Below are positions 2,965-32,079 of a stretch of 32,079 nt of DNA, piece after piece (positions within the stretch are counted from its first letter, which is position 1; each line of letters opens with the position of its first letter). The stretch lies in IMG/VR virus record IMGVR_UViG_3300009450_000002, positions 1 to 32,079 of that record; one strand, 5' to 3'. The position numbers and the translations under genes are program-made. Below the pieces are notes generated by a model. That model was not told the origin of the DNA, made no database searches, and worked only from the letters and a program-made list of their open reading frames with translations. This DNA is from a virus.

Positions 2965-4264
2965 TAAGCAACTCCAGGATTTCTAGTTTCTTCTTCTTCA
3001 GGGCCAGTAGATCATCAGCCTTGGTGTCTACGGGTGCAGGCTCAGGTTCTGCCTGTTGTGGTTTCAGGTTGTCGATGACTTTCGATAACAGGTCGACATC
3101 CTCGGAGGACATGTCAGCGCCTTCTTCCAGTTTCAGGATGGCGTCAGCAAGTTGGTCAGCATCCACATCGGCTGATCGCGCTACACGGTCGAGGCCACGA
3201 ACCGATACAGTGCCAGCGGTACCGGCATATGCAGGCCATGACACAATGCTTGCCTCGATGAGTCTGACACTGTTCAGTGTGCGCTCAGTACCGTTGTCGT
3301 TCCATGAGTCACGGATAACACTGAAACCGAATGACATTGAATCTATATCGCCACGTTTCACCAAGACCGATACGTCGCGCCCTAAAGTTGTCGGGGCCAG
3401 ATCAGCGGTCACCTTCAGACCACGGGCATCTTCCTCGACAGTCATGGTGCCTGCACGGGTCGACGCCAACACATTCGCTGGGTTGTGGTCGAACAACAGT
3501 TTCACATCGTTGCGGGAACGTAGCGATCGCTTGAACGCTCCAGGTGCCACGAACTCAGTGAACCCACCCAGATCTTCAGACCGGCTGTTGAACACTGCCG
3601 CATACCCTTCGAACCTCAGGCCACCGTCCTCCAGTTCACGGATTTCGAAGTCAACTGGACGTGTGCGAGTTTCTAGTTTTTTCACTGCCTCACCCTTTGC
3701 ACTGCTACGGTCTTGATTCTCTTGTTCAATTCTACCAACCACGCCCTCAGCATATTCCATCGCACGGCGGGCTGACCGTTTCGACGGGCCAGAACCCCAC
3801 AGAAGATGTGCGACGACGCCAGGTGTCGGATAGTCGTCACTTTCAGGGTTCGCGCCTGGAGCGTCCAGGTCTGTCATGTGCCGTGCCACCCATGCGGCGA
3901 TACGAACCCACTTGTCAGGTGTCAGAGAGTCACCACGGGCCATCTGACGCGCCTCAGTAACGGTTCTACCCTCGAGGCCATCGCCAGCTAATCCTTGGTC
4001 ATAATATCGGAGGCCCTGACGTGCCGCGGCCCTCATGTAAGCGGGTGCAACCAGGTTCACCTGACGTGATTCCACAGGTTCAGTAACATCACGGTTATCA
4101 GGCTGATAAGTGCCACCTGGTTCCAAATCCTCAGCAATACTGATCGCGACCATCTGGTCGATAGCATCCTGTTCTGTATCGTGACACGCGACAACTTCGC
4201 CGTCCTCTTTTACGACGGCCCAGGCTGGACAGTCAGGTGATTCGTTAGTGATGAAGTAAGGCAT
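2957..4264 (-). CDS. Capsid maturation (prohead) protease, HK97 family, with an extra N-terminal domain and a C-terminal coiled coil
   Basis: The central region (FEGYAAVFN...LLFDHNPANVLAS...GDIDSMSFGF...ASIVSWPAY) matches the HK97 prohead protease His/Ser motifs. It sits between portal and capsid. Confidence 0.85.
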   Translation of the reverse strand: MPYFITNESPDCPAWAVVKEDGEVVACHDTEQDAIDQMVAISIAEDLEPGGTYQPDNRDVTEPVESRQVNLVAPAYMRAAARQGLRYYDQGLAGDGLEGRTVTEARQMARGDSLTPDKWVRIAAWVARHMTDLDAPGANPESDDYPTPGVVAHLLWGSGPSKRSARRAMEYAEGVVGRIEQENQDRSSAKGEAVKKLETRTRPVDFEIRELEDGGLRFEGYAAVFNSRSEDLGGFTEFVAPGAFKRSLRSRNDVKLLFDHNPANVLASTRAGTMTVEEDARGLKVTADLAPTTLGRDVSVLVKRGDIDSMSFGFSVIRDSWNDNGTERTLNSVRLIEASIVSWPAYAGTAGTVSVRGLDRVARSADVDADQLADAILKLEEGADMSSEDVDLLSKVIDNLKPQQAEPEPAPVDTKADDLLALKKKKLEILELLNG

Positions 4265-4548: not shown

Positions 4549-5912
4549 TAGGTCACCTTGTCTTCATACGGTGCACCGGTGTCCTCAGGGTTGACCTGTG
4601 CGACACCCTGCAACTGCACAGAAGGCAACCCAGTGTGGTCGATAGGTGGCAGACCGATAGCCTGCAAAGCCTCGGCAGGTGAGAACCCAGAGTAGACCAG
4701 CGCCTGAACCATCTTGACGCGCTCCATCTGAGCCTTCACATCGGAGTCTTCCATGTTGACGTTTGCCAACGGGACACGTGGTTGACGTGCCGCGTCGGAG
4801 TCGACCGGTGGCATGTCCTCCAGGATGCGCACATCATTGATAGACATGGCACCCATTTGGATCATGCGGGAGTAGGCATTGGTTCTGGCGTCGAGGTCAC
4901 CGCGTAGCAGACCCTCGAGGTTGAAGCGTAGGAAGGCTTCGGTGCCTCCACGGTAACGGTTCATGAGGACAGACATGGCCGATTCGACCTTCGATGCCAG
5001 TGGCCTCAGGTTCGTCGTCACCCAGTTGCGGTTATTTTCTTCCACTGAGGCGAACGTGTTGGTGCCTGGGAGTCCCATGAGGTGTGGTGGAATGTTGAAC
5101 GCCCTGGCGACATCCTCGACCGCCATGCGACGCGCCTCGATGACCTGTGACTGTTCAGCGTCGACCTGTGTTGGTTTGAATGTTGCACCACCTGTGAGGA
5201 CACCGGTTCGGTGTGCCTTCTTCCACGATTGGTGAGAACTGTCGAAGCCGTTCCTTAAATCGGAGGCCTGGTCAGCGCTAAGCGCCCCAGGAAACTCGAT
5301 TACCCCTGCCATGGTGGTACCACTACCGAAGAATGTCTGTGCCCAACGCTCCAGCGCCAGTGACAGACCGAACGATTCCTTAAGTGCTGACACACGTGAA
5401 ATGCCCCGCACATTCCCTGGCTTCATTAGGTCAGGGATGTAGATGATGTCGTCAGAGGTAAGCGGTTCTGTTTCACCCTCGACGTTGAACTGCAGGAAGC
5501 CGAGGCCGTTGCGTTTCACCTCGACCGTGAGTGGGTTCAGTACAACCAGGTTCACTACCTCATTGCGTCGATTCGCGAACACACGGATAAACGCTGAACC
5601 CTCCAACAGCATAGAAGTGAACACGGCTGAGTAGAACGCCTCACGGGGCAGGGCCACATCAGGCCTGTTCACCCATTCTGGTTTAGGCCGAAAAGGTTTG
5701 CGGGTGCCATCATCCCTGATGAACACATCCAGTGGAAGTGTGGACAGTGTGGTGCTGATGAGGTTCACGGCACTGAACACGGCGTTGACCGTGTAGATGG
5801 TGTCACTGTTTATGTTTGTGCCAGCGTGGGTGCCGAACGCAATGTCGTCGCCTGAAGCGAAAATGGATTGGTAGGAAATCCCGCGTTCCTCGAAAAGCCT
5901 GTTAAAAATCAT
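4548..5912 (-). CDS. Portal protein (HK97-family type)
   Basis: 454 aa, positioned after the large terminase. The N-terminus (ISYQSIFASGDD...AVFSAVNLISTTLSTLPLDVF) is typical of HK97-type portals. Confidence 0.9.
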   Translation of the reverse strand: MIFNRLFEERGISYQSIFASGDDIAFGTHAGTNINSDTIYTVNAVFSAVNLISTTLSTLPLDVFIRDDGTRKPFRPKPEWVNRPDVALPREAFYSAVFTSMLLEGSAFIRVFANRRNEVVNLVVLNPLTVEVKRNGLGFLQFNVEGETEPLTSDDIIYIPDLMKPGNVRGISRVSALKESFGLSLALERWAQTFFGSGTTMAGVIEFPGALSADQASDLRNGFDSSHQSWKKAHRTGVLTGGATFKPTQVDAEQSQVIEARRMAVEDVARAFNIPPHLMGLPGTNTFASVEENNRNWVTTNLRPLASKVESAMSVLMNRYRGGTEAFLRFNLEGLLRGDLDARTNAYSRMIQMGAMSINDVRILEDMPPVDSDAARQPRVPLANVNMEDSDVKAQMERVKMVQALVYSGFSPAEALQAIGLPPIDHTGLPSVQLQGVAQVNPEDTGAPYEDKVT

Positions 5913-6050: not shown

Positions 6051-7583
6051 CTATCCAAAGAACTGAGGCACTACCTGTTCCATTCTAGCGACCGTGGCGC
6101 GGTCAACGGCGATGATGCAGGCCACCGCCGCATCGATTTTCCTGGGACTCGAACGACTCTCTTTCACAATCCTGGGGCCCAGGTTGTCTTGTTTCACCAC
6201 CGCATTCGCCAGATGCCTACCTAGTGTTGGGTTGCCGTCATGGATGATCGACGCTGTGCCCTCCATCACCATGTCATAAAATTTGGCACAGGCTCCAACC
6301 ATGCGCCGTGGTGAGGTGGACGGATACTCAACAACTGGCAGACCTAGTTCAGCCAACACCTGCATTGACCGTTGCCATCGAAACGGGTCACACGCGATTT
6401 CCAAAACCTTGGGATGATCCCGACAGTACTGAATGATGGTCTGCTCCACCTCAGCAATATCCACACGCCAGTCCTCATCATCAGTGTCCAGGTTCTTCTC
6501 CCAGATTTTCACCAACTGAACCTTCACTGGTTCGTCATCCTTCTGAATTGTCGATGCGACCAAGGCGGTACAGTCGCCACTGAAAGACCCGTCAAATCCG
6601 AGAATGACTTCCTCATCGGGGCTGATAGTTAAATCGCCCTCACAGGCCTCCCATGACCCCGTAGGTAGCCATGAGAGTGCTGATGCTACGAAGCAGTTCA
6701 TCCGTTTTGTACGAAACTCGGCTTCAGGTGTACGTTTCACCGCGGCCTCGAAATCCGAAGGATCATTAAGGTCACCGAACCCTGGGTTGGCCTTCCTCCA
6801 CGTTTCAGGATCACTGTGAGGTCCGTCATCCTCCCACCAAGCCATGAAGTAGTTCTTATCGTCGACCTCACCGGCTGACACCTTCTTGCCATAGTTGTAC
6901 AAGTCGAAGGCGATCGAGTCGCGTCCAGTCGAGTCTGATTTGACACCGGCGGTAGTGATAGACACCATGTGTGCCCTATCACCACGCGCCGCCATTGAGA
7001 GTGACATCACGTCGAACATTTTGCGGTTGGGTTGGGCGTGGAGTTCGTCGACCCAGATCGCGCTACTGTTCAAACCTTCAGCGGCACCTGCCTCCGCTGA
7101 TAGCACACGATATACAGACCCCTTCGCTGGTACCTCAATCGCGTCGCGGTAGAGTTTCGTCAAATCCCTGAGTTCCTCATGAGTTTCGATGATGCGCTTC
7201 GCCTCACCGAACACGATACGCGCCTGGTCGCGGGTTGCGGCGACTGAGTAGGTTTCACCACCGGCTGGACCGAATATTGTATCGAACACGGCCAGGTGAC
7301 TGGCCAAGGCGGATTTTCCGTTTTTGCGCGGCAAGCCTACAAGTGCCGTCTTTGCGAGGAACCCACCGTTTTCGTCCTGGGCGTATAACTGACGTATGAG
7401 TTCCTTCTGCCAGTCACGAAGTACCAGTTTGGAACCGGCACGCCCTGACACAGAATCCTTGGTGATGACTCCGAAGGCGTCGATGAAGTCGATGGCCAGT
7501 TCAGCCTTCTTGAACGTGGCACCCTCAGGCACGGGTGTCATCCACCGTGGTGGCCATCCTTCAACGTCTGGCATAGAAGTCAT
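6051..7583 (-). CDS. terL: Terminase large subunit (Terminase_1-like)
   Basis: 510 aa. Motifs include LRDWQKELIRQLY and a Walker-A-like GLPRKNGKSALAS, with a C-terminal nuclease half. Confidence 0.9.
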   Translation of the reverse strand: MTSMPDVEGWPPRWMTPVPEGATFKKAELAIDFIDAFGVITKDSVSGRAGSKLVLRDWQKELIRQLYAQDENGGFLAKTALVGLPRKNGKSALASHLAVFDTIFGPAGGETYSVAATRDQARIVFGEAKRIIETHEELRDLTKLYRDAIEVPAKGSVYRVLSAEAGAAEGLNSSAIWVDELHAQPNRKMFDVMSLSMAARGDRAHMVSITTAGVKSDSTGRDSIAFDLYNYGKKVSAGEVDDKNYFMAWWEDDGPHSDPETWRKANPGFGDLNDPSDFEAAVKRTPEAEFRTKRMNCFVASALSWLPTGSWEACEGDLTISPDEEVILGFDGSFSGDCTALVASTIQKDDEPVKVQLVKIWEKNLDTDDEDWRVDIAEVEQTIIQYCRDHPKVLEIACDPFRWQRSMQVLAELGLPVVEYPSTSPRRMVGACAKFYDMVMEGTASIIHDGNPTLGRHLANAVVKQDNLGPRIVKESRSSPRKIDAAVACIIAVDRATVARMEQVVPQFFG

Positions 7584-7968
7584 CTATCACTCGCTTCGTT
7601 CGGACATGCTGCGTGGAAGGTCTGTCAGCCAATCTTCTCAGACATTCATCACGGCCAGGGTCGACCACTGTGACTCGGGCGTTGTGCATCCTGTAAATTC
7701 TGGACCATTCAGCATCAGGTTGGGTGTGAACAATCCAAACGTTCCGGCGACTAATCTGTCCTACACGTAGCGCCTCTTTCACTGCAACCTTCCGCGCTGA
7801 CCGTGCGATCTGCCTGACCTCATCAGAGTAGTCATGTACCTCGATGTCATCCACCACCATGGCTGATGCAATCAAATCCATGTCGACGACGATGTCGCCA
7901 GGTAGTGCATTCTCAGTCACGAACGTGGATTTACCTGCACACGGTGGTCCACTGATGACCCTGATCAT
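7561..7968 (-). CDS. P-loop NTPase / nucleotide-kinase-like protein
   Basis: 135 aa with an N-terminal Walker A (ISGPPCAGKST). It overlaps TerS by 4 nt and TerL by 23 nt. Confidence 0.65.
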   Translation of the reverse strand: MIRVISGPPCAGKSTFVTENALPGDIVVDMDLIASAMVVDDIEVHDYSDEVRQIARSARKVAVKEALRVGQISRRNVWIVHTQPDAEWSRIYRMHNARVTVVDPGRDECLRRLADRPSTQHVRTKRVIDDFYARR

Positions 7969-8408
7969 GAGTCAGAACGTGCCAGTAGTTCTTCCAGTTT
8001 AGAACGCGCCTTCACCTCGGCCACACCTAGACGTGAACGGTCAGCGGGTGTGAACCCAAGCAAAGAAAGGTTGGACACTATTTGTCGCTCCAGTTCCCTC
8101 AGGCCACGACGTGTTCTCGGGTCATCGGTTTTCATGACCTGCACACGTAGGTTCCATCGTTCGTCCACCATTTCGCACGTCATCAGTAACAGTTCTATAT
8201 CAGTGTTGGGACTAATCCAGGTTGCACCTACAGACCAGATGCGGTTCCATAGATCGCGCCCGTAAGTCAGTAGCGGTCTGGCAGGATCAGGTATTTCATG
8301 GACGCCTGGGAGTATCTGAACCTCACCTGGTTCTGGCAGTGGACGTTTCCCAGGGTTGCCCAACATGCGCTTCTGCTCAATCGGCTTCGGAGGTCGACCT
8401 GCAGGCAT
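7965..8408 (-). CDS. terS: Terminase small subunit (P27 family-like)
   Basis: The N-terminus GRPPKPIEQKRMLGNPGKRPLP is the P27-family signature as I recall it. It lies upstream of TerL. Confidence 0.8.
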   Translation of the reverse strand: MPAGRPPKPIEQKRMLGNPGKRPLPEPGEVQILPGVHEIPDPARPLLTYGRDLWNRIWSVGATWISPNTDIELLLMTCEMVDERWNLRVQVMKTDDPRTRRGLRELERQIVSNLSLLGFTPADRSRLGVAEVKARSKLEELLARSDS

Positions 8409-9208
8409 CAGGCACCGCCTACTTGGAGCCCTGAGGTCAGATTTGCACTGCCTTCTTCTGACCGGAAGTCAGACACATCACTAACAATGCTTCCAGGGCG
8501 TTTACCACGATACATCCTCGCGCCTTGTTTGTCTATTTCAGAGAAAGGCAGAATGGGCACGGTCAGGCGTTCCCTAGCCTGAGGATTAAGGAAGTAAATG
8601 TATTTCAACTGATAGCCACCCAGACACTCAGCGCCGACTCGCTTCAGGAACGTCGTCGATGTTTCTGATCCAGTCTTGTTGTATCTGGCCTTGATGTTGT
8701 TCTCACCTTTGGTGCCTGAACCGAACCCAGGTTCGAGGACTATCTTGCAAATGACCTCACCATCGGGCATGCGCCACATGGATTTATTCGGTGTGATTTT
8801 CAGAAGGTCAAAACCACTCGCACGATAGATGGTCCCATCACCACACTGAGTGCCATCAGCGTAGGACAGAACCCACTCGATGTGAGGTACCTTCTTCCTC
8901 AGCATCCTCATCGCCACACCGATGGCACGCGACTCACTGTTCTTGGGTAGCACATCAGAGAAAGCCATGCGGTGCAACTCGATGAACCCGTTCCATGAGG
9001 TATCACGAACGAGGCCCACACTCTTTCCCTTGTCGATGGATGGACCCAGTTGCATCACTCCCTCAAGGCGTCCACGATAGAAAACACCCAGATGCACCTG
9101 TGATCGAGGGTCGACTTTCCCTGAGTAGTGGTGTGTCTTTACAAACGCGACCGCGGCACTCCGAGGGATGCCTTTGACCTCGATTTCTTTCGCGCTCATC
9201 CAGGCCAC
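8408..9208 (-). CDS. Putative Mom-like (GNAT-fold) DNA-modification protein. The family call is tentative.
   Basis: 266 aa. The motifs FVKTHHYSGK, LPKNSES and VLSYADGTQCGDGTIYRASGF resemble the HHYS / PKNxES / SxAD..G.IYxAxxx blocks I recall for Mom-family proteins. Confidence 0.45.
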   Translation of the reverse strand: MAWMSAKEIEVKGIPRSAAVAFVKTHHYSGKVDPRSQVHLGVFYRGRLEGVMQLGPSIDKGKSVGLVRDTSWNGFIELHRMAFSDVLPKNSESRAIGVAMRMLRKKVPHIEWVLSYADGTQCGDGTIYRASGFDLLKITPNKSMWRMPDGEVICKIVLEPGFGSGTKGENNIKARYNKTGSETSTTFLKRVGAECLGGYQLKYIYFLNPQARERLTVPILPFSEIDKQGARMYRGKRPGSIVSDVSDFRSEEGSANLTSGLQVGGA

Positions 9209-9801
9209 TCCGACATGACCAGGAACAAGGCGTTGCCATTACTGTTCTGATTCTCACCATCGTCTGGGAGTCTGTTCGACTTCTTAGCCTGGGCCAGAAC
9301 CTGACGGATAGTTTCAGCCTGCTCCAGGCTCACAGTGAAGGTCATCTGTGTGGCATCCTTCCTCGGGGCATCCTCGAGTAACGAAAACGGGTCATCTACC
9401 TCATCAGGCCTGACGTCGAGGATTTCATACCCTGTGAAACCAATCGACTCAACATCCCAGTCCGCCAGTTTCAGTTCGGTCAACTGTTCCGATAGTTCCA
9501 CATGATTCCACTCAGCCAACTCAGCCGTTCGATTATCAGCAAGCGCGAACGCTTTGACCTGCTCAGGTGTCCAGTCAGATGGAACACGAACACATCCTAC
9601 CTTCGACCATCCCAGTGATGTCGCGGCCTGAACCGTTCCGTTACCAGCGACGATGACGTTATCAGATGTGATAACCACCGGCTTGCGCTGACCAAACTGC
9701 TCCAGTGATCCAGCGATGGCGTCGATGTTTCTCTGGTCATGAGTCCTGGCGTTCGACGGGTCGAAGGTGAGGTCAGCGATTTGCACTGTTTCGATTTTCA
9801 T
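9196..9801 (-). CDS. ParB-like nuclease domain protein
   Basis: The N-terminus (IADLTFDPSNARTHDQRNIDAIAGSLEQFGQRKPVVI...VIVAGNGTVQAA) is typical of the ParB/Srx N-terminal domain. Confidence 0.75.
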   Translation of the reverse strand: MKIETVQIADLTFDPSNARTHDQRNIDAIAGSLEQFGQRKPVVITSDNVIVAGNGTVQAATSLGWSKVGCVRVPSDWTPEQVKAFALADNRTAELAEWNHVELSEQLTELKLADWDVESIGFTGYEILDVRPDEVDDPFSLLEDAPRKDATQMTFTVSLEQAETIRQVLAQAKKSNRLPDDGENQNSNGNALFLVMSEWPG

Positions 9802-9970: not shown

Positions 9971-10294
9971 TTAGAGTGGTTTGTTGCCACGTTTACGGTT
10001 GCAGGTTCTGTGTGCTTTTGCGAGTGGTGAGTGATGGCCTAGTTCTGGGTAAATGTGGTCTGCTTCCCATGGGTCGCCCTCCCTGGCCTCACCGCCACAC
10101 AGGTGGCATACCCCCCCTGGGGCAGTCACTAGTTTTGCTTTTTGTTTATAGTTTCCACCGTATAGGAATTGTTTCTTCGCTTTGCGTCGAGGTGATTTCG
10201 ATGGTTGTGTCTTGCGTCTGTGGTCTGGGCAGTAGGACTGTGGGGATAGAACACCACATGTGAGGCATGGCCTGGGGAACCCGTAGGTAGTCAT
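9971..10294 (-). CDS. HNH endonuclease
   Basis: CHLCG...ADHIYP...AHRTCNRKRG is an HNH motif. An HNH gene near the terminase is typical of HK97-like cos phages. Confidence 0.8.
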   Translation of the reverse strand: MTTYGFPRPCLTCGVLSPQSYCPDHRRKTQPSKSPRRKAKKQFLYGGNYKQKAKLVTAPGGVCHLCGGEAREGDPWEADHIYPELGHHSPLAKAHRTCNRKRGNKPL

Positions 10295-10298
10295 TTTT

Positions 10299-10793
10299 TT
10301 AGATCGCTGTGAGTTTGTGTTGTGGTACCTGCCGGAGTAGTCCTGAGTTGTCCCAGTCGACTGGTAGTCCGATGTCCCAGGCTGTTGTGGCTTTGATGTA
10401 GCCGATGACGTCGACTAGGTTGTCTGGGTCTGTGTGGGCGTAGGCGAGGACGATGACACGGTCGAGTGTGGCGTAGTCCTCTTTCACTAGCAGTGAGTGG
10501 TGTGGTGATCTGGCGCGTTTCACCTCGATGTTGACACCTACGTCTGGTTCGTGTTTGTGTAAATGGTGGTGTTCGGCTGACCACCATGAGGCGTGCCAGT
10601 ACCTGTTGAACGCTTTCGCTGTTGCTAGTTCGCATCGTGTGGAGGCGTACATGGCGACACTGTTGTCCTCCATGCGATCACTGTTGCGTGCGTAGGCTGG
10701 GGCGTTGCCACGCCCTTCGTTCATTTCGTTGCGTTTGTCTGCAACCAGACGGGCCAGGACTAGGTCTGAGTTGTTCAGTTCGATGGTAGCCAT
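10299..10793 (-). CDS. Hypothetical protein, 164 aa, with a possible PD-(D/E)xK-like motif
   Basis: ORF track. EPDVGVNIEVK resembles a PD...ExK nuclease motif, but this is weak. Confidence 0.5.
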   Translation of the reverse strand: MATIELNNSDLVLARLVADKRNEMNEGRGNAPAYARNSDRMEDNSVAMYASTRCELATAKAFNRYWHASWWSAEHHHLHKHEPDVGVNIEVKRARSPHHSLLVKEDYATLDRVIVLAYAHTDPDNLVDVIGYIKATTAWDIGLPVDWDNSGLLRQVPQHKLTAI

Positions 10794-13796: not shown

Positions 13797-14735
13797 CTAT
13801 TCAATGACCTCAATGTCAGCCAACATTCCAAGTTCAGCGGTCAATCTGTTCTCACTGAGTCGTGCATAGTCTGGGTTGACCTCGCATCCAACATAGTTGC
13901 GGCCATGCTTTAGCGCGACGACTCCGGTGGTGCCAGAACCAGAGAACGGGTCTAGGACTGTATCGCCAGGCTCACTACCAGCAAGAACACAAGGTTCGAT
14001 TAAGGCCGGAGGGTAGACCGCAAAATGAGCGCCCTTGTATGAAGCCACAGAAACATTCCAGACTGACCTCTTGTTGCGTTTGTCTTTAATGCTGACGAAC
14101 GCTTCCTGACCAGTCCCTTCTTGACCTTGCCGTTTACCTCGATAACTCAGTCGACCGAGGCCCGCACGATTGTCCTCTGACCAGATGGCATCCTCTTGGA
14201 TTGCCTCATGGTCGAAGAAATACTTAGGTTGTTTGGAGAACAAGAAAATGTATTCATGCGATTTGACACATCTGTCTTTGACACTCTCAGGCATTGGGTT
14301 CGGTTTTGACCAGATAATGTCTTGCCTCAGGTACCAACCACGATCTTGCATTGCGAAAGCGAACCGCCAAGGTATTCCAGCCAGGTCTTTCTTTTTGAGG
14401 CCGTCGCCCAGTCGTGAAAAGGTTCCTTCTCGTTCTTGACCAAAACCAGCGCGACCGGCAGTGCTAGCGCGACTTTGAGAACCGCCAGCATATGAGTCAC
14501 CAAGGTTCACCCAAAGGGTACCGTCGTCTGCCAGTACCCTCCAGACCTCATCGAATACTTTGCAGAGGCTTTCGACATACTCTGACGGAGTGTTCTCTAA
14601 ACCTATCTGGGCATCGTTCCCGTAGTCACGAAGTCCCCAGTATGGTGGCGATGTGACACAGGTTCGTGCTGACCCCTCAAGCATCCCTGCAAGAAGTTCA
14701 GTTGCCTCACCTATTGCAACTTGACCCCAGTTCAT
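13797..14735 (-). CDS. DNA methyltransferase, beta class (N6-adenine or N4-cytosine)
   Basis: Motif IV (TSPPYW) is near the N-terminus and motif I (DPFSGSGTTGVVA) near the C-terminus, which is the N6_N4_Mtase-type order. Confidence 0.85.
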   Translation of the reverse strand: MNWGQVAIGEATELLAGMLEGSARTCVTSPPYWGLRDYGNDAQIGLENTPSEYVESLCKVFDEVWRVLADDGTLWVNLGDSYAGGSQSRASTAGRAGFGQEREGTFSRLGDGLKKKDLAGIPWRFAFAMQDRGWYLRQDIIWSKPNPMPESVKDRCVKSHEYIFLFSKQPKYFFDHEAIQEDAIWSEDNRAGLGRLSYRGKRQGQEGTGQEAFVSIKDKRNKRSVWNVSVASYKGAHFAVYPPALIEPCVLAGSEPGDTVLDPFSGSGTTGVVALKHGRNYVGCEVNPDYARLSENRLTAELGMLADIEVIE

Positions 14736-30047: not shown

Positions 30048-30076
30048 GCCCCGCTACGGCGGGGCCTTTCTCATTT
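30048..30076 (+). terminator. Rho-independent terminator; the hairpin also closes the convergent GT operon
   Basis: GCCCCGC-TACG-GCGGGGC is followed by CTTTCTCATTT. Confidence 0.65.
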
Positions 30077-30724
30077 ATCCCAAGCGTTCTCACGGCGACG
30101 CTCCAGTGACCAGCCTCCAGGTCCAAAGTCGCCACGCGCCACCTTGTCGTCATAGTATCTACGGTTCGAACCATGAGTCCGATGATTTAACTCCATCAGA
30201 CGCTGATCAGAATGAATCGTAGAACTATTGTCATGGCCGATAGGGAACGGCACCTTCCGAACAGGCACACCATGATGATTAGCACGCCTTATCATGTCCA
30301 CATCCTCCATGAAGGCAGGGTAGATAGCCTCATCGAATAGACCCATCGCCGTCAGCGCCTCATCACCGATAGCAAACGCCTGCCAGTAGGGAAAGGTGTC
30401 AGACGTCGTTACATCGCTTCTACGGGCCTGTGAAAGGCGCTCAAGGGCACCTGGACCGAACCAGCAATCGTTCGACGCGAATGTCCACACACTGTCATGT
30501 GGGAACAGTTTGATGCCCAGGTTCCATGAACCTGCCACACCCAGGTTCGACGGCATAGACAACACGTGACTGTTCAACACAGGTTTAGGGAAGGCGACGG
30601 TGTCCAACTCTCCACCGTTGTCGATGATGAGCAGATCGCGAACGGGGAAGTCAATCGAGTCCAACATGCGCTGGAGTAGGTCATACCGGTTCAGCACTGG
30701 CACAATCAGGTTAGGGAGCATCAT
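30071..30724 (-). CDS. Glycosyltransferase, GT-A fold (family 2-like)
   Basis: The N-terminus LIVPVLNRYDLLQRMLDSI...LLIIDNG is typical of GT2 enzymes. Confidence 0.7.
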   Translation of the reverse strand: MMLPNLIVPVLNRYDLLQRMLDSIDFPVRDLLIIDNGGELDTVAFPKPVLNSHVLSMPSNLGVAGSWNLGIKLFPHDSVWTFASNDCWFGPGALERLSQARRSDVTTSDTFPYWQAFAIGDEALTAMGLFDEAIYPAFMEDVDMIRRANHHGVPVRKVPFPIGHDNSSTIHSDQRLMELNHRTHGSNRRYYDDKVARGDFGPGGWSLERRRENAWDK

Positions 30725-31385
30725 GTACTCCCTGGAACTTGTGACCCTCCAGGTTGAAGTTCACGAACGGGTTCAGTGAGTACACCCTTGCCCCATACTT
30801 CTCACCCAACCACTTCTTCATCGCGATCAGATGGTTGTCGTACAACTGCCATGGTGTGTGACCGGCAGGGTATCCCTTGACCCTGTGCATGTTGTCGATG
30901 GTGCCACAATCAGCACCAACCAACACGATGTTCCTGGCACCCATGTGTGCGGCCAGATGCATAGACCCGTGGATAGATGACGAACCGAACACTAGTTCTC
31001 CATCCCTGTTGTGTCGTGATGGGTTAAAGGATGACCCAATGGGTTCCCTGAACGTCAACTCATTGATGACGATGTTGCTAGGTTGGGGATTACCGAAGCA
31101 CCATTCCCCTTCACCGTAGTCATACGATGATGACCAGCGTGTCGAACACAGGTCATGGGTAACAGCCAACACCATCCCAGGGTCATTCAGATGTCGCTTG
31201 ACGGCTGGGTGATAGTGAGTGAACAGGTAGTAGTCCCTCAGTGGGAATTGTTCCGCGATCAGGTTTGTTGCAATGCAGACCTTGTCATCGAAGAATGCTG
31301 GATGAAGGAACTGCACTGAGGCACCTGAGCCGAATACCCAGATGGTTTCACCCTCATGGATGTCAGCGAGTTGGGAAAGTTTCAC
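30711..31385 (-). CDS. Putative glycosyltransferase-like Rossmann protein (DUF115/sialyltransferase-like pattern; tentative)
   Basis: I trimmed the track ORF to GTG 31385 (GGAG 7 nt upstream), because the upstream 89 codons overlap the GT4 gene in another frame. Motifs are IWVFGSGAS ... GSSSIHGSMHLAAHMGARNIVLVGADCG. Confidence 0.4.
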   Translation of the reverse strand: MKLSQLADIHEGETIWVFGSGASVQFLHPAFFDDKVCIATNLIAEQFPLRDYYLFTHYHPAVKRHLNDPGMVLAVTHDLCSTRWSSSYDYGEGEWCFGNPQPSNIVINELTFREPIGSSFNPSRHNRDGELVFGSSSIHGSMHLAAHMGARNIVLVGADCGTIDNMHRVKGYPAGHTPWQLYDNHLIAMKKWLGEKYGARVYSLNPFVNFNLEGHKFQGVHDAP

Positions 31386-32079
31386 CGTAGAACTCCATGA
31401 AGAACGGCAACCAGTAGGTGTCCCACACATGCTCCACCTCGAACTGTTTCGCGAACTCGATGTTGACGTGACTGATACCACGTGGCTGTTCGTACACGGC
31501 CTCCAACGCTTGAGCCATCGACGACAGTGTGGGTCGCATATAGAACGCGCCCTGAGGTTCGTCCCATAGCGGTTCGCCATCGCAAAGGTAAGAGTCTGGG
31601 CCTGCCAGATCAGGTGACGCGGTCCAGGATGATGTGAGCAGACGGGCACCACACGCTTGTGACTCGATGCTGGTCACACCGAAACCTTCACCGTAGGTGA
31701 CGTTCATGACGACGTCTGACGCGGTGTAGAACGCGGCCAGATGTTCTGCAGGGTAGCCCACACGTAGCAGGGTCGCGTCAGGGAATATGACATCGTTCTT
31801 ATCCAGGCCAATCGCTTCGAGTAGGCGTGGAATGTTGAACCCTCCGAACACGGCAGACGGTTCCATATGCAGGTACAGTCGCGCCTCAGGGTGCTTCTTC
31901 TTGAACAGGGAGTATGCGAACAACTGTTCGGATAGTGCTTTACGATGCAGGATGCCGTTGGATTTATTCGCCGCGACGATGCTGACCAAGAAATGGTCAT
32001 CAGTGAGGCCCATGAACTCACGTGTCGGAACACCATCCACCTTGTACGTCGGCTTGTACACCTTCGCGTCGAACGCGTG
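31363..32079 (-). CDS. Glycosyltransferase (GT1/GT4-like), 3' part of the junction-spanning gene (see 1-591)
   Basis: YGEGFGVTSIESQACGARLL is a GT-B EX7E-type motif. The reading frame is continuous with 1-591. Confidence 0.75.
   Translation of the reverse strand, partial: HAFDAKVYKPTYKVDGVPTREFMGLTDDHFLVSIVAANKSNGILHRKALSEQLFAYSLFKKKHPEARLYLHMEPSAVFGGFNIPRLLEAIGLDKNDVIFPDATLLRVGYPAEHLAAFYTASDVVMNVTYGEGFGVTSIESQACGARLLTSSWTASPDLAGPDSYLCDGEPLWDEPQGAFYMRPTLSSMAQALEAVYEQPRGISHVNIEFAKQFEVEHVWDTYWLPFFMEFYGETFPTR
31981..32079. repeat. Second copy of the 99-nt terminal repeat
   Basis: Identical to nt 1-99. Confidence 0.95.

Follow-up and report, generated by a model that had tools for sequence, protein, structure and literature searches.

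The Mom protein of phage Mu, the gene for which Mu controls tightly through Com, was an enigma for 40 years. It is described as a tRNA-dependent DNA adenine glycyl-transferase (PF25680; crystal structure 8BV8) that leads to N6-carbamoylmethyl-dA, and a 2026 study reported that it uses Gly-tRNAGly selectively and proposed that it binds tRNA in a FemX-like manner (PMC13219725). Small ParB proteins activate phage thymine dioxygenases on duplex DNA (PMC13229309), and in the 'ParB-Tls locus', a concept of Iyer and Aravind as cited in PMC4738411 and PMC6536676, a modification gene lies between a ParB-like gene and TerL and packaging-linked modification is proposed. In Staphylococcus, non-proteogenic tRNAGly isoacceptors owe a weak binding to EF-Tu to their T-stem pairs, reserving Gly-tRNA for a non-ribosomal transferase (PMC7826273). 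The locus described here lies in IMG/VR record IMGVR_UViG_3300009450_000002 (positions 1 to 32,079; the whole 32,079-nt stretch is referred to as the window) and brings a Mom-like gene, a ParB-like gene and a tRNAGly-like RNA gene together.

Because Mu Mom takes glycine from Gly-tRNAGly, the locus is read as a self-contained 'momylation' cassette of three parts, a Mom-like enzyme, a ParB-type partner and a dedicated glycyl-carrier RNA, that would carry out post-replicative DNA glycylation and that heads the packaging operon. The probability of this reading is put at about 0.6. An earlier note, made from the letters of the window, had proposed a ParB-like and Mom-like pair. The Mom family itself is known; what appears to be new is the near-universal tRNAGly-like RNA fused to the Mom gene, together with the ParB pairing. 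The parts are as follows.

9196..9801, minus strand: ParB-like protein, 201 aa (phrog_620, fold match)
8501..9199, minus strand: Mom-like GNAT-fold enzyme, protein-constrained part, residues 4-236 of open reading frame (ORF) 8408-9208 (PF25680)
8424..8499, minus strand: tRNA-Gly-like RNA gene, 76 nt (ARAGORN, family covariance model R1, covariation)
8408..8423, minus strand: tail end of the open frame that runs through the RNA (ORF table, sequence)

As the earlier note had stated, two overlapping ORFs separate an HNH-like gene (9971-10294) from TerS (7965-8408), all on the minus strand. Along the direction of transcription the order is a 164-aa ORF, the HNH-like gene, the 201-aa ORF, the 266-aa ORF, TerS, a 135-aa ORF and TerL. 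The mechanically called 266-aa ORF (8408-9208) overlaps the ParB ORF. Since the ParB stop codon and an in-frame Mom ATG form an ATGA overlap at 9199-9196, preceded by GGAG, the Mom start is probably the ATG at 9199, which gives 263 aa, the length of close homologues. At the other end the TGA of the Mom frame (8410-8408) overlaps the ATG of TerS (8408-8406), so that ribosomes in the Mom frame would stop on the TerS start. The RNA gene ends 16 nt before that start.

The 266-aa protein is a true Mom homologue with a GNAT fold, as the earlier note had tentatively suggested, and by analogy with Mu Mom it is a putative DNA aminoacyl (glycyl) transferase. It matches Pfam PF25680 (Mom) over residues 9-223 with 168.6 bits (cut-off 27.1; E=1.8e-49), which covers positions 2-201 of the 202 in the model, and phrog_1384 with E=2.5e-46. 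The mom genes of Mu, D108 and SfMu are found by tblastn at 34.7% identity (E ~1e-24), and the crystal structure of Mu Mom (PDB 8BV8) is matched by sequence with 34% identity and E=7e-26. When the AlphaFold2 (AF2) model (mean predicted local distance difference test score, pLDDT, 80.6, with residues 235-266 below 50) was compared with the PDB using Foldseek, 8BV8 was the best match (E=8e-19, TM 0.77), far ahead of generic GNATs. The sequence blocks THHYSGK, LPKNSES and SYADGTQCGDGTIYRASGF on which the family call had been based are all present. The last ~100 residues, for which the note recognised no counterpart, are mostly accounted for: residues up to ~219-223 align with Mu Mom and 8BV8, residues 224-236 are a clade-specific conserved C-terminus, and codons ~237-262 are the tRNA-Gly-like RNA gene. 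The tail translated from the RNA gene is predicted to be disordered (pLDDT ~30). PADLOC made no defence-system assignment for this protein.

Six residues of Mu Mom have been defined by mutation as needed for activity (PMC7261163, PMC13219725). Their counterparts in the window are H27, Y28, R80, S93, D118 and Y128 (Mu H58, Y59, R111, S124, D149 and Y159 in the numbering of PMC13219725), and all six are invariant in 102/102 members of the ParB-linked clade and in 22/22 Mu-type members. An insertion with short helices (residues ~140-198) stands at the topological place of the helix-turn-helix (HTH)-like insertion that precedes the last strand of Mu Mom; it is longer than that of Mu and is modelled less confidently. 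The enzymes of this clade also have a conserved C-terminal motif of their own, TVPxLPFSEIDKxGAxMYxG.

A single tRNA, tRNA-Gly(TCC), was found by ARAGORN in the whole window, at 8424-8499 on the minus strand. It has the anticodon TCC at 8466-8464, U73 and an encoded CCA, and its minimum free energy fold is the cloverleaf, including an A (8437) that bulges from the 3′ strand of the T stem. Further oddities are a G that replaces U55 and the absence of G18G19 from the D loop. The Rfam tRNA model (RF00005) gives 22.4 bits, below the gathering score of 29; the threshold is reached by 4 of 19 representative relatives (29.8-40.7 bits) and missed by the remaining 15. ARAGORN calls a tRNA-Gly (anticodon TCC or ACC) at the same place in ~20 related loci, and its only non-Gly call among ~145 Mom loci (L001-L145) is an Arg in L145. 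It detects the RNA in only about one locus in six.

A covariance model, R1, was built from 13 ARAGORN-called elements. It matches the window once, with 87.1 bits, and nothing else in the window exceeds 13 bits. Among 117 ParB-linked loci, 115 have an R1 match at the 3′ end of the Mom gene and on the enzyme strand, the exceptions being L053, where the contig ends, and L128. No match was found beside 26 of 27 Mu-type IMG/VR mom loci, beside mom of Mu itself (L002) and of PAN70, or beside ORF69, a Mu-like mom of phage Y8A. A match of 32 bits in phage Melnitz-2 was set aside as an ordinary tRNA-Trp ~1 kb from the Mom-like gene of that phage and not a member of the family.

The cloverleaf is supported by covariation. 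In the alignment of the 13 elements (A5), 99.2% of cells are paired and compensatory changes are seen in 16 of 21 pairs. Covariation scores 0.73, compared with 0.215 for shuffled alignments (0/500 reach the observed value) and at most 0.13 when pairing partners are slid; over both RNA alignments the score ranges from 0.73 to 0.78. Among 41 distinct sequences of the first batch (A6), 19 of 21 pairs covary, and the two that never vary are G1:C72 and C2:G71. The paired percentage is inflated by the use of ARAGORN, which selects for pairing; neither the compensatory changes nor the constancy of the genomic position depends on this selection.

A recurrent GGAxPT in the tail of Mom is the translation of the T arm (GGC GGT GCA AnT CCG ACC), so the constraint is on the RNA and not on the protein. 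In the window, a change of one pair from G:C to A:U turns GGAxPT into GSANLT, the G-to-S and P-to-L replacements being the two sides of one compensatory change. GGAxPT was accordingly rejected as a protein motif. An attP or integration-site origin of the element was also rejected, as the element is of full length, has no integrase nearby, always lies between Mom and the terminase genes, and has oddities specific to the family.

Nucleotides of the RNA that matter for charging and those that matter for decoding have fared differently. Feature counts refer to 89 unique sequences, and anticodon-loop counts to the 68 with 7-nt loops. All 89 begin with GC, and U is the discriminator in 88/88; they end in UCCA in 66/89 and in UC(A/G/U)A in 19/89. 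The anticodon is NCC in 68/68 (UCC in 41, ACC in 23, CCC in 4 and GCC never). G1:C72, C2:G71, C35, C36 and U73 are invariant in the family, and precisely these are the determinants of bacterial glycyl-tRNA synthetase (GlyRS) (PMC10464925). Judged from its sequence, the RNA carries the exact bacterial GlyRS identity set, and would be expected to be charged. Only 34/68 retain U33, and 19/68 have a pyrimidine at position 37; the anticodon loop is 8 nt long in 15 RNAs. A G occupies position 55 in 73/87, and the D arm has been lost in about 25/89 (67-70 nt). The bulged A in the 3′ strand of the T stem is present in 88/89, between pairs 50:64 and 51:63, and falls within the first three T-stem pairs, which set the affinity for EF-Tu (PMC7826273). 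With the GlyRS set invariant and the decoding nucleotides decayed, the RNA is read as selected for glycylation rather than for decoding.

Linkage of the three genes was followed in both directions. A search with the enzyme yielded 57 IMG/VR loci, and in each one with room for it the immediate upstream neighbour is a ParB homologue; the linkage persists at a ParB identity of ~27% and beside an unrelated terminase. A second, profile-based scan added 27 Mu-type and 53 further loci; ParB is present in none of the Mu-type loci and, given enough DNA, in all of the 53 others, where its distance from the enzyme start is usually no more than ±20 nt. In all of the ~110 related viral loci with enough upstream DNA, ParB and Mom form a fixed overlapping pair, and searches that started from ParB homologues lead back to Mom and terminase neighbours. 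The proposal that the two genes act as a pair is therefore strongly supported, by their fixed overlap across distant phages and by the published precedent of ParB-dependent enzymes (PMC13229309).

For the reverse test, IMG/VR was searched with a pattern drawn from the RNA only (T arm and 3′ end), and 80 loci of at least 120 matching stretches were considered. Among these listed matches, 72 of the 75 loci with enough flanking DNA have a directly adjacent Mom homologue. ParB, Mom and the RNA stand in the usual order in 49 of the 80, Mom and the RNA are found at a contig edge in 4, 5 have too little DNA to judge, and 3 have no adjacent Mom. In the remaining 19 the RNA lies immediately upstream of a more divergent Mom-like gene with no ParB nearby. 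As the RNA is tied to Mom-type genes in two gene orders, its functional link appears to be with the enzyme rather than with ParB or the terminase. One example of the RNA-then-Mom order is L168 (1328-2056, minus strand), and 18 others are found among L148-L227, the RNA lying inside the mechanically called 5′ extension of Mom.

The only cultured carrier of the cassette is Psychrobacter phage vB_PmaS_Y8A (L001), with the order ParB, Mom-like, TerS. Its Mom-like ORF17 is separated from TerS by two tandem copies of the RNA, neither of which has a D arm (5656-5723 and 5728-5796; ~7786-7926 of the record); these copies are unannotated in GenBank and were missed by ARAGORN. The same phage encodes a second, stand-alone Mom, the Mu-like ORF69, without such an RNA.

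Some relatives have more than one Mom gene. In L044 (3252-3950), L046, L047, L049, L051, L054, L117, L124 and L143, ParB is followed by a second, divergent Mom paralogue and then by the main Mom. No RNA accompanies the divergent paralogue, and in L044 its Fe/active-site Asp is replaced ('THAGG'). L100 has two Mom genes with a tRNAGly-like RNA behind each, the two RNAs being nearly identical. L090, a Mu-type locus with 68% identity to Mu Mom, has a canonical tRNA-Gly(TCC) at 3800-3873, ~200 nt upstream of mom; its T stem has no bulge, its TTCGATC loop is normal and its D loop contains GG. Here mom may have become associated with tRNAGly independently, or the tRNA may be that of a host, at the edge of a prophage. 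In L063 (367-705) and L064 (152-490), where ParB is ~61% identical to that of the window, the cassette has a WhiB-family gene upstream, which suggests actinobacterial hosts for this sub-lineage.

The first large ORF downstream of the cassette is TerL in 58 of 65 non-redundant loci, and these belong to four different Pfam TerL families. The order in the window, namely ParB, Mom, RNA, TerS, a kinase-like gene and TerL on one strand, is that of a 'ParB-Tls locus'.

The assignment of the first gene to the ParB/Srx fold was borne out by PHROG profiles (phrog_620 with E=1.9e-40, and 15 further ParB PHROGs) and by the AF2 model (pLDDT 81), for which Foldseek places Noc, ParB and KorB on top (E ~1e-6) and also returns PadC and sulfiredoxin (range 1e-6 to 1e-2). 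The 201-aa protein scores below the gathering score of Pfam ParB_N (PF02195; 15 bits against 26.3, E=0.026) and far below the cut-off of NCBIfam parB_part (TIGR00180; 18 bits against 58), and its sequence finds only chance ubiquitin matches in the PDB. Many of its close homologues carry a precomputed PF02195 match. In PADLOC the window protein matches, through its N-terminal 136 residues, only the ParB portion of a model for proteins in which ParB is fused to a methyltransferase (MTase_II, 3e-20). In the model an N-terminal domain of nucleotide-binding type is followed by a poorly ordered linker and a small C-terminal domain of two helices, with no recognisable HTH DNA-binding domain, and no parA was found among the annotated genes of the window. 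With neither an HTH nor a partner parA found, the protein does not fit the description of a canonical chromosome or plasmid partition ParB.

Box I (DPSNAR; N17/R19) and box III (ALADNR; D89/N90) are retained in the window ParB, and box II is AGNGT, with Thr56 replacing an arginine. Across 95 unique cassette ParBs, box I (NxR) and box III (DN) are kept and box II is G(H/N)xR in 58/95 and G-N-G-T, as in the window, in 34/95. Nothing in the family is better conserved than a C-terminal NxNSNGNAL (9196-9250 of the window, minus strand), which is invariant in 94-95 of the 95 unique sequences. This motif, for which we know of no described function, is a candidate interface with the enzyme or the RNA.

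Taken as a cassette, the parts would work as follows. The Mom-like GNAT would transfer an aminoacyl group, most likely glycyl, from an aminoacylated donor of tRNA type onto a base of duplex DNA. If the enzyme acts as Mu Mom does, the acceptor would be the N6 of adenine and the adduct would rearrange to N6-carbamoylmethyl-adenine. The 76-nt RNA would be released, charged by host GlyRS and used as a dedicated glycyl carrier, with its T-stem bulge and degenerate decoding features keeping it away from EF-Tu and the ribosome. Through translational coupling, the ParB-like protein would be made in stoichiometric amounts with the enzyme, which it would load or activate on duplex DNA, a role modelled on the ParB-dependent phage thymine dioxygenases. 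Late co-expression with the terminase would allow the DNA to be modified shortly before or during packaging and to be protected from restriction in the next host.

A bolder form of this reading is that a large, mostly uncultured phage clade encodes a non-translational glycyl carrier RNA, fused to the 3′ end of the Mom gene (or placed on its 5′ side), charged by host GlyRS, shielded from EF-Tu and the ribosome and used to aminoacylate DNA, with ParB as an obligatory loading or activating subunit in most lineages. The chances of its being correct are judged to fall a little short of even. If it is correct, this would be the first case of a virus encoding an aminoacyl-tRNA-like cofactor dedicated to the modification of DNA, and the product could differ from that of Mu, the essential Arg151 being replaced.

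Several observations weigh against the cassette as proposed. Among the Mom-RNA junctions of L001-L145, the RNA begins before the Mom stop codon in 112 of 115 cases, the stop lying upstream of it in the other 3, and because the RNA overlaps the Mom frame, excision by RNase P would leave a mom mRNA without a stop codon. The Mom frame is free of stops through the RNA in 57 of 85 unique cases (67%), compared with 53/170 (31%) for the other frames, which hints at a role at the mRNA level; the open frame could reflect genome compaction with translational coupling into TerS, or a cis-acting structure. CCA is incompletely encoded in the 19/89 RNAs noted above. Mu Mom does without a dedicated tRNA, since any host isoacceptor will serve it, and two metagenomic Mom homologues, which may or may not belong to this clade, are active when expressed alone in E. 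coli (PMC13219725). In the ParB of the window, the box II arginine that has been lost is one that canonical ParBs need for binding of nucleoside triphosphate (NTP). The enzyme has changed as well. The position of Mu R151 is T120 in the window and Thr in 92/102 clade members, never Arg, and the R151A substitution abolishes the activity of Mu Mom (PMC13219725). W48 and W181 of the Mu dimer interface are replaced in the clade by Ser or others and by Val or others, respectively. The acceptor base, donor or product of this clade may therefore differ from those of Mu.

The best placed of the alternatives, though unlikely, is that the tRNA-like element acts in cis on the mRNA and not as a donor, while ParB and Mom modify DNA using host Gly-tRNAGly. 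Placed where the mom message ends, the element could mimic a tRNA and be bound by Mom (a binder of tRNA acceptor ends) or by GlyRS, allowing autoregulation of a Mom that is toxic when over-expressed; it could gate translational coupling into the terminase genes; or it could be a 'punctuation' site for processing by RNase P. The overlap with the Mom frame in 112/115 loci and the excess of stop-free frames fit such a role, as do the termination of the window Mom frame exactly on the TerS ATG, the absence here of Com, the tight controller of mom in Mu, and the acceptance by Mu Mom of every host tRNAGly isoacceptor (PMC13219725). Against this, a pure binding mimic or processing signal would need neither invariant C35 and C36 nor the full GlyRS set with an encoded CCA. 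The element is also found upstream of Mom, in tandem and once per paralogue (L001, L100, L118, L145, L168), and a gene product fits such varied positions and copy numbers better than does a position-specific mRNA signal.

Less probable again is that the clade enzyme makes something other than the Mu product, with another acceptor (a different base, or the RNA itself) or another acyl donor, in which case the locus would specify a different modification or a GNAT/tRNA conflict module. The active-site loop is specific to the clade, ADGTQCGDG with Q121 and D124 invariant, where Mu has ADERCGRAG, and Arg151 is replaced by Thr; other GNATs that handle Gly-tRNAGly, such as TacT, acetylate the tRNA instead (PMC13219725). 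Since the clade lacks R151, W48 and W181 and has a loop and a C-terminal motif of its own, its product cannot simply be assumed to be N6-carbamoylmethyl-adenine. However, R111, the putative base-recognition residue, and all other mutationally defined residues are kept, the insertion stands at the site of the essential HTH-like DNA-binding insertion of Mu Mom, and the ParB-Tls packaging position and the ParB partner point to DNA as the target.

That the RNA is an ordinary decoding tRNA-Gly for GGA/GGN codons, hitch-hiking by mom while the ParB-Mom pair scavenges host tRNA, is very improbable: tRNA genes are common in phages, ARAGORN calls the element tRNA-Gly, a few members reach the Rfam threshold and the Mu-type L090 has a canonical tRNA-Gly by mom, but the poor retention of U33, the G55, the pyrimidines at position 37, the 8-nt loops, the loss of the D arm in about a quarter, the near-constant T-stem bulge, the use of ACC and never GCC, the Rfam scores of 22-41 bits (mostly sub-threshold), the strict adjacency to Mom in both search directions and the lack of any accompanying tRNA species all speak against it.

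The window looks like a complete, circularly permuted siphovirus genome of ~32 kb, with genes for capsid, protease, portal, tail, lysin, RusA, SSB, YqaJ and an N6_N4 methyltransferase. No near-identical DNA was found in cultured phages by megablast. The other genes referred to here are as follows.

7965..8408, minus strand: TerS, context only (Pfam Terminase_7, E=3.8e-7; phrog_83, E=2.9e-17)
6051..7583, minus strand: TerL, context only (Pfam TerL_ATPase, E=2e-18; TerL_nuclease, E=5e-14)
9971..10294, minus strand: HNH-like endonuclease, context only, outside the conserved module (PHROG HNH families, ~1e-6; Pfam weak, E=0.017)
13797-14735: N6_N4 methyltransferase (Pfam, E=9e-53), the separate methyltransferase reported in the earlier note

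The HNH-like gene is upstream of ParB in some related loci only, and in L031 it follows Mom. Between TerS and TerL, and overlapping both, is a P-loop kinase-like ORF of 135 aa (7561-7968, minus strand), for which the matches are Pfam AAA_33 (1e-7) and polynucleotide kinase or ATPase PHROGs. This ORF is confined to the closest relatives (L004-L007), and in L006 is upstream of ParB; it might have to do with the processing of RNA or tRNA ends, or be unrelated. A promoter and terminator scan of the region gave no more sites than shuffled sequence. A sigma-70-like hexamer pair (TAGACA, 17 nt, TATCGT) at 8507-8535 on the minus strand, which ends 7 nt before the first base of the RNA and would place a transcription start approximately at its 5′ end, is a lead only.

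The segment 10001-13000, covering ORFs upstream of the HNH gene, has an odd base composition, with an AT skew of -0.37 and a GC skew of +0.18 at 10-11 kb compared with ~-0.05 elsewhere; here an alternative 114-aa ORF (10291-10635) overlaps the 164-aa ORF. At 30071-31652 on the minus strand, beside head-tail connector genes, a family 2 glycosyltransferase (E=8e-8) is followed by a weak MptE-like match. These genes might add another modification, whether of DNA, of the virion or of the host surface.

A full-text literature search found no paper linking Mom to ParB or to a phage-encoded tRNA-like RNA, although a mention in the original 2013 ParB-Tls paper is not excluded by that search. Neither the RNA nor the ParB-Mom pairing is described in PMC13219725, PMC13229309 or PMC12704722; the 2026 Mom paper (PMC13219725) mentions neither ParB, phage tRNA genes nor gene neighbourhoods, and a survey of ParB-CTPases does not mention Mom. 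This locus and its more than 190 relatives suggest that most environmental Mom-type systems are cassettes with their own tRNA-like cofactor gene and a ParB partner. If so, they would provide independent comparative-genomic support for tRNA-dependent DNA modification across the Mom family, and would define a new class of viral non-coding RNA that standard annotation has missed, being inside an ORF and below the Rfam threshold. The role of ParB-like partners would be extended to a second, unrelated superfamily of DNA-modifying enzymes, and the three genes would form a compact toolkit of ~1.4 kb for site-selective DNA aminoacylation.

Compared with canonical bacterial tRNA-Gly (RF00005), the cassette RNA shares the 7-bp acceptor stem, the NCC anticodon, U73, CCA, T54, C56, A58 and G53:C61. 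It differs in its sub-threshold score, the bulged A of the T stem, the missing U55 and G18G19, the unconserved U33 and the absence of GCC. A closer parallel is with the staphylococcal non-proteogenic tRNAGly isoacceptors that serve FmhB, FemA and FemB (PMC7826273), which are likewise dedicated paralogues with GlyRS identity kept and D and T arms deviating. The cassette RNA, in contrast, is virus-encoded, fused to the enzyme gene and far more degenerate, and its weak binding to EF-Tu would be a property predicted from the T-stem bulge.

For the ParB component the nearest described systems are the 5mYOX-ParB pairs of phage thymine dioxygenases (O'Toole et al., PNAS 2026, PMC13229309). In both, a small ParB-like protein without a DNA-binding HTH is encoded beside a post-replicative DNA-modifying enzyme, and the nearest structural relatives include the ParBs of Myxococcus and Caulobacter. 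The canonical NTP-site residues are not strictly needed in the 5mYOX ParBs and are not strictly kept in the cassette ParBs, and the ParB-dependent subclass of 5mYOX enzymes carries subclass-specific segments, as does the cassette Mom. The partner here is a putative GNAT aminoacyl-transferase and not an iron/2-oxoglutarate (Fe/2OG) dioxygenase, and the likeness drawn here is one of architecture. ParB-Tls loci have the same sandwich arrangement; in the citing papers, the cargoes described are methyltransferases and TET/JBP-type enzymes, with no Mom or RNA among them.

The enzyme itself finds its closest counterpart in phage Mu. It differs from Mu Mom in being only 34% identical, in lacking R151, W48 and W181, and in having the invariant loop GTQCGDG and an extra C-terminal motif. 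The setting differs too: there is no Com, a ParB-like gene precedes the enzyme gene and the RNA follows or overlaps it, and the cassette lies beside the terminase genes and not at the genome end. The two share the family, the fold, the six residues and the insertion at the place of the HTH. Both are late genes of tailed phages, and the link of Mu Mom to glycine and tRNAGly is mirrored in the cassette by the adjacent tRNAGly-like gene.

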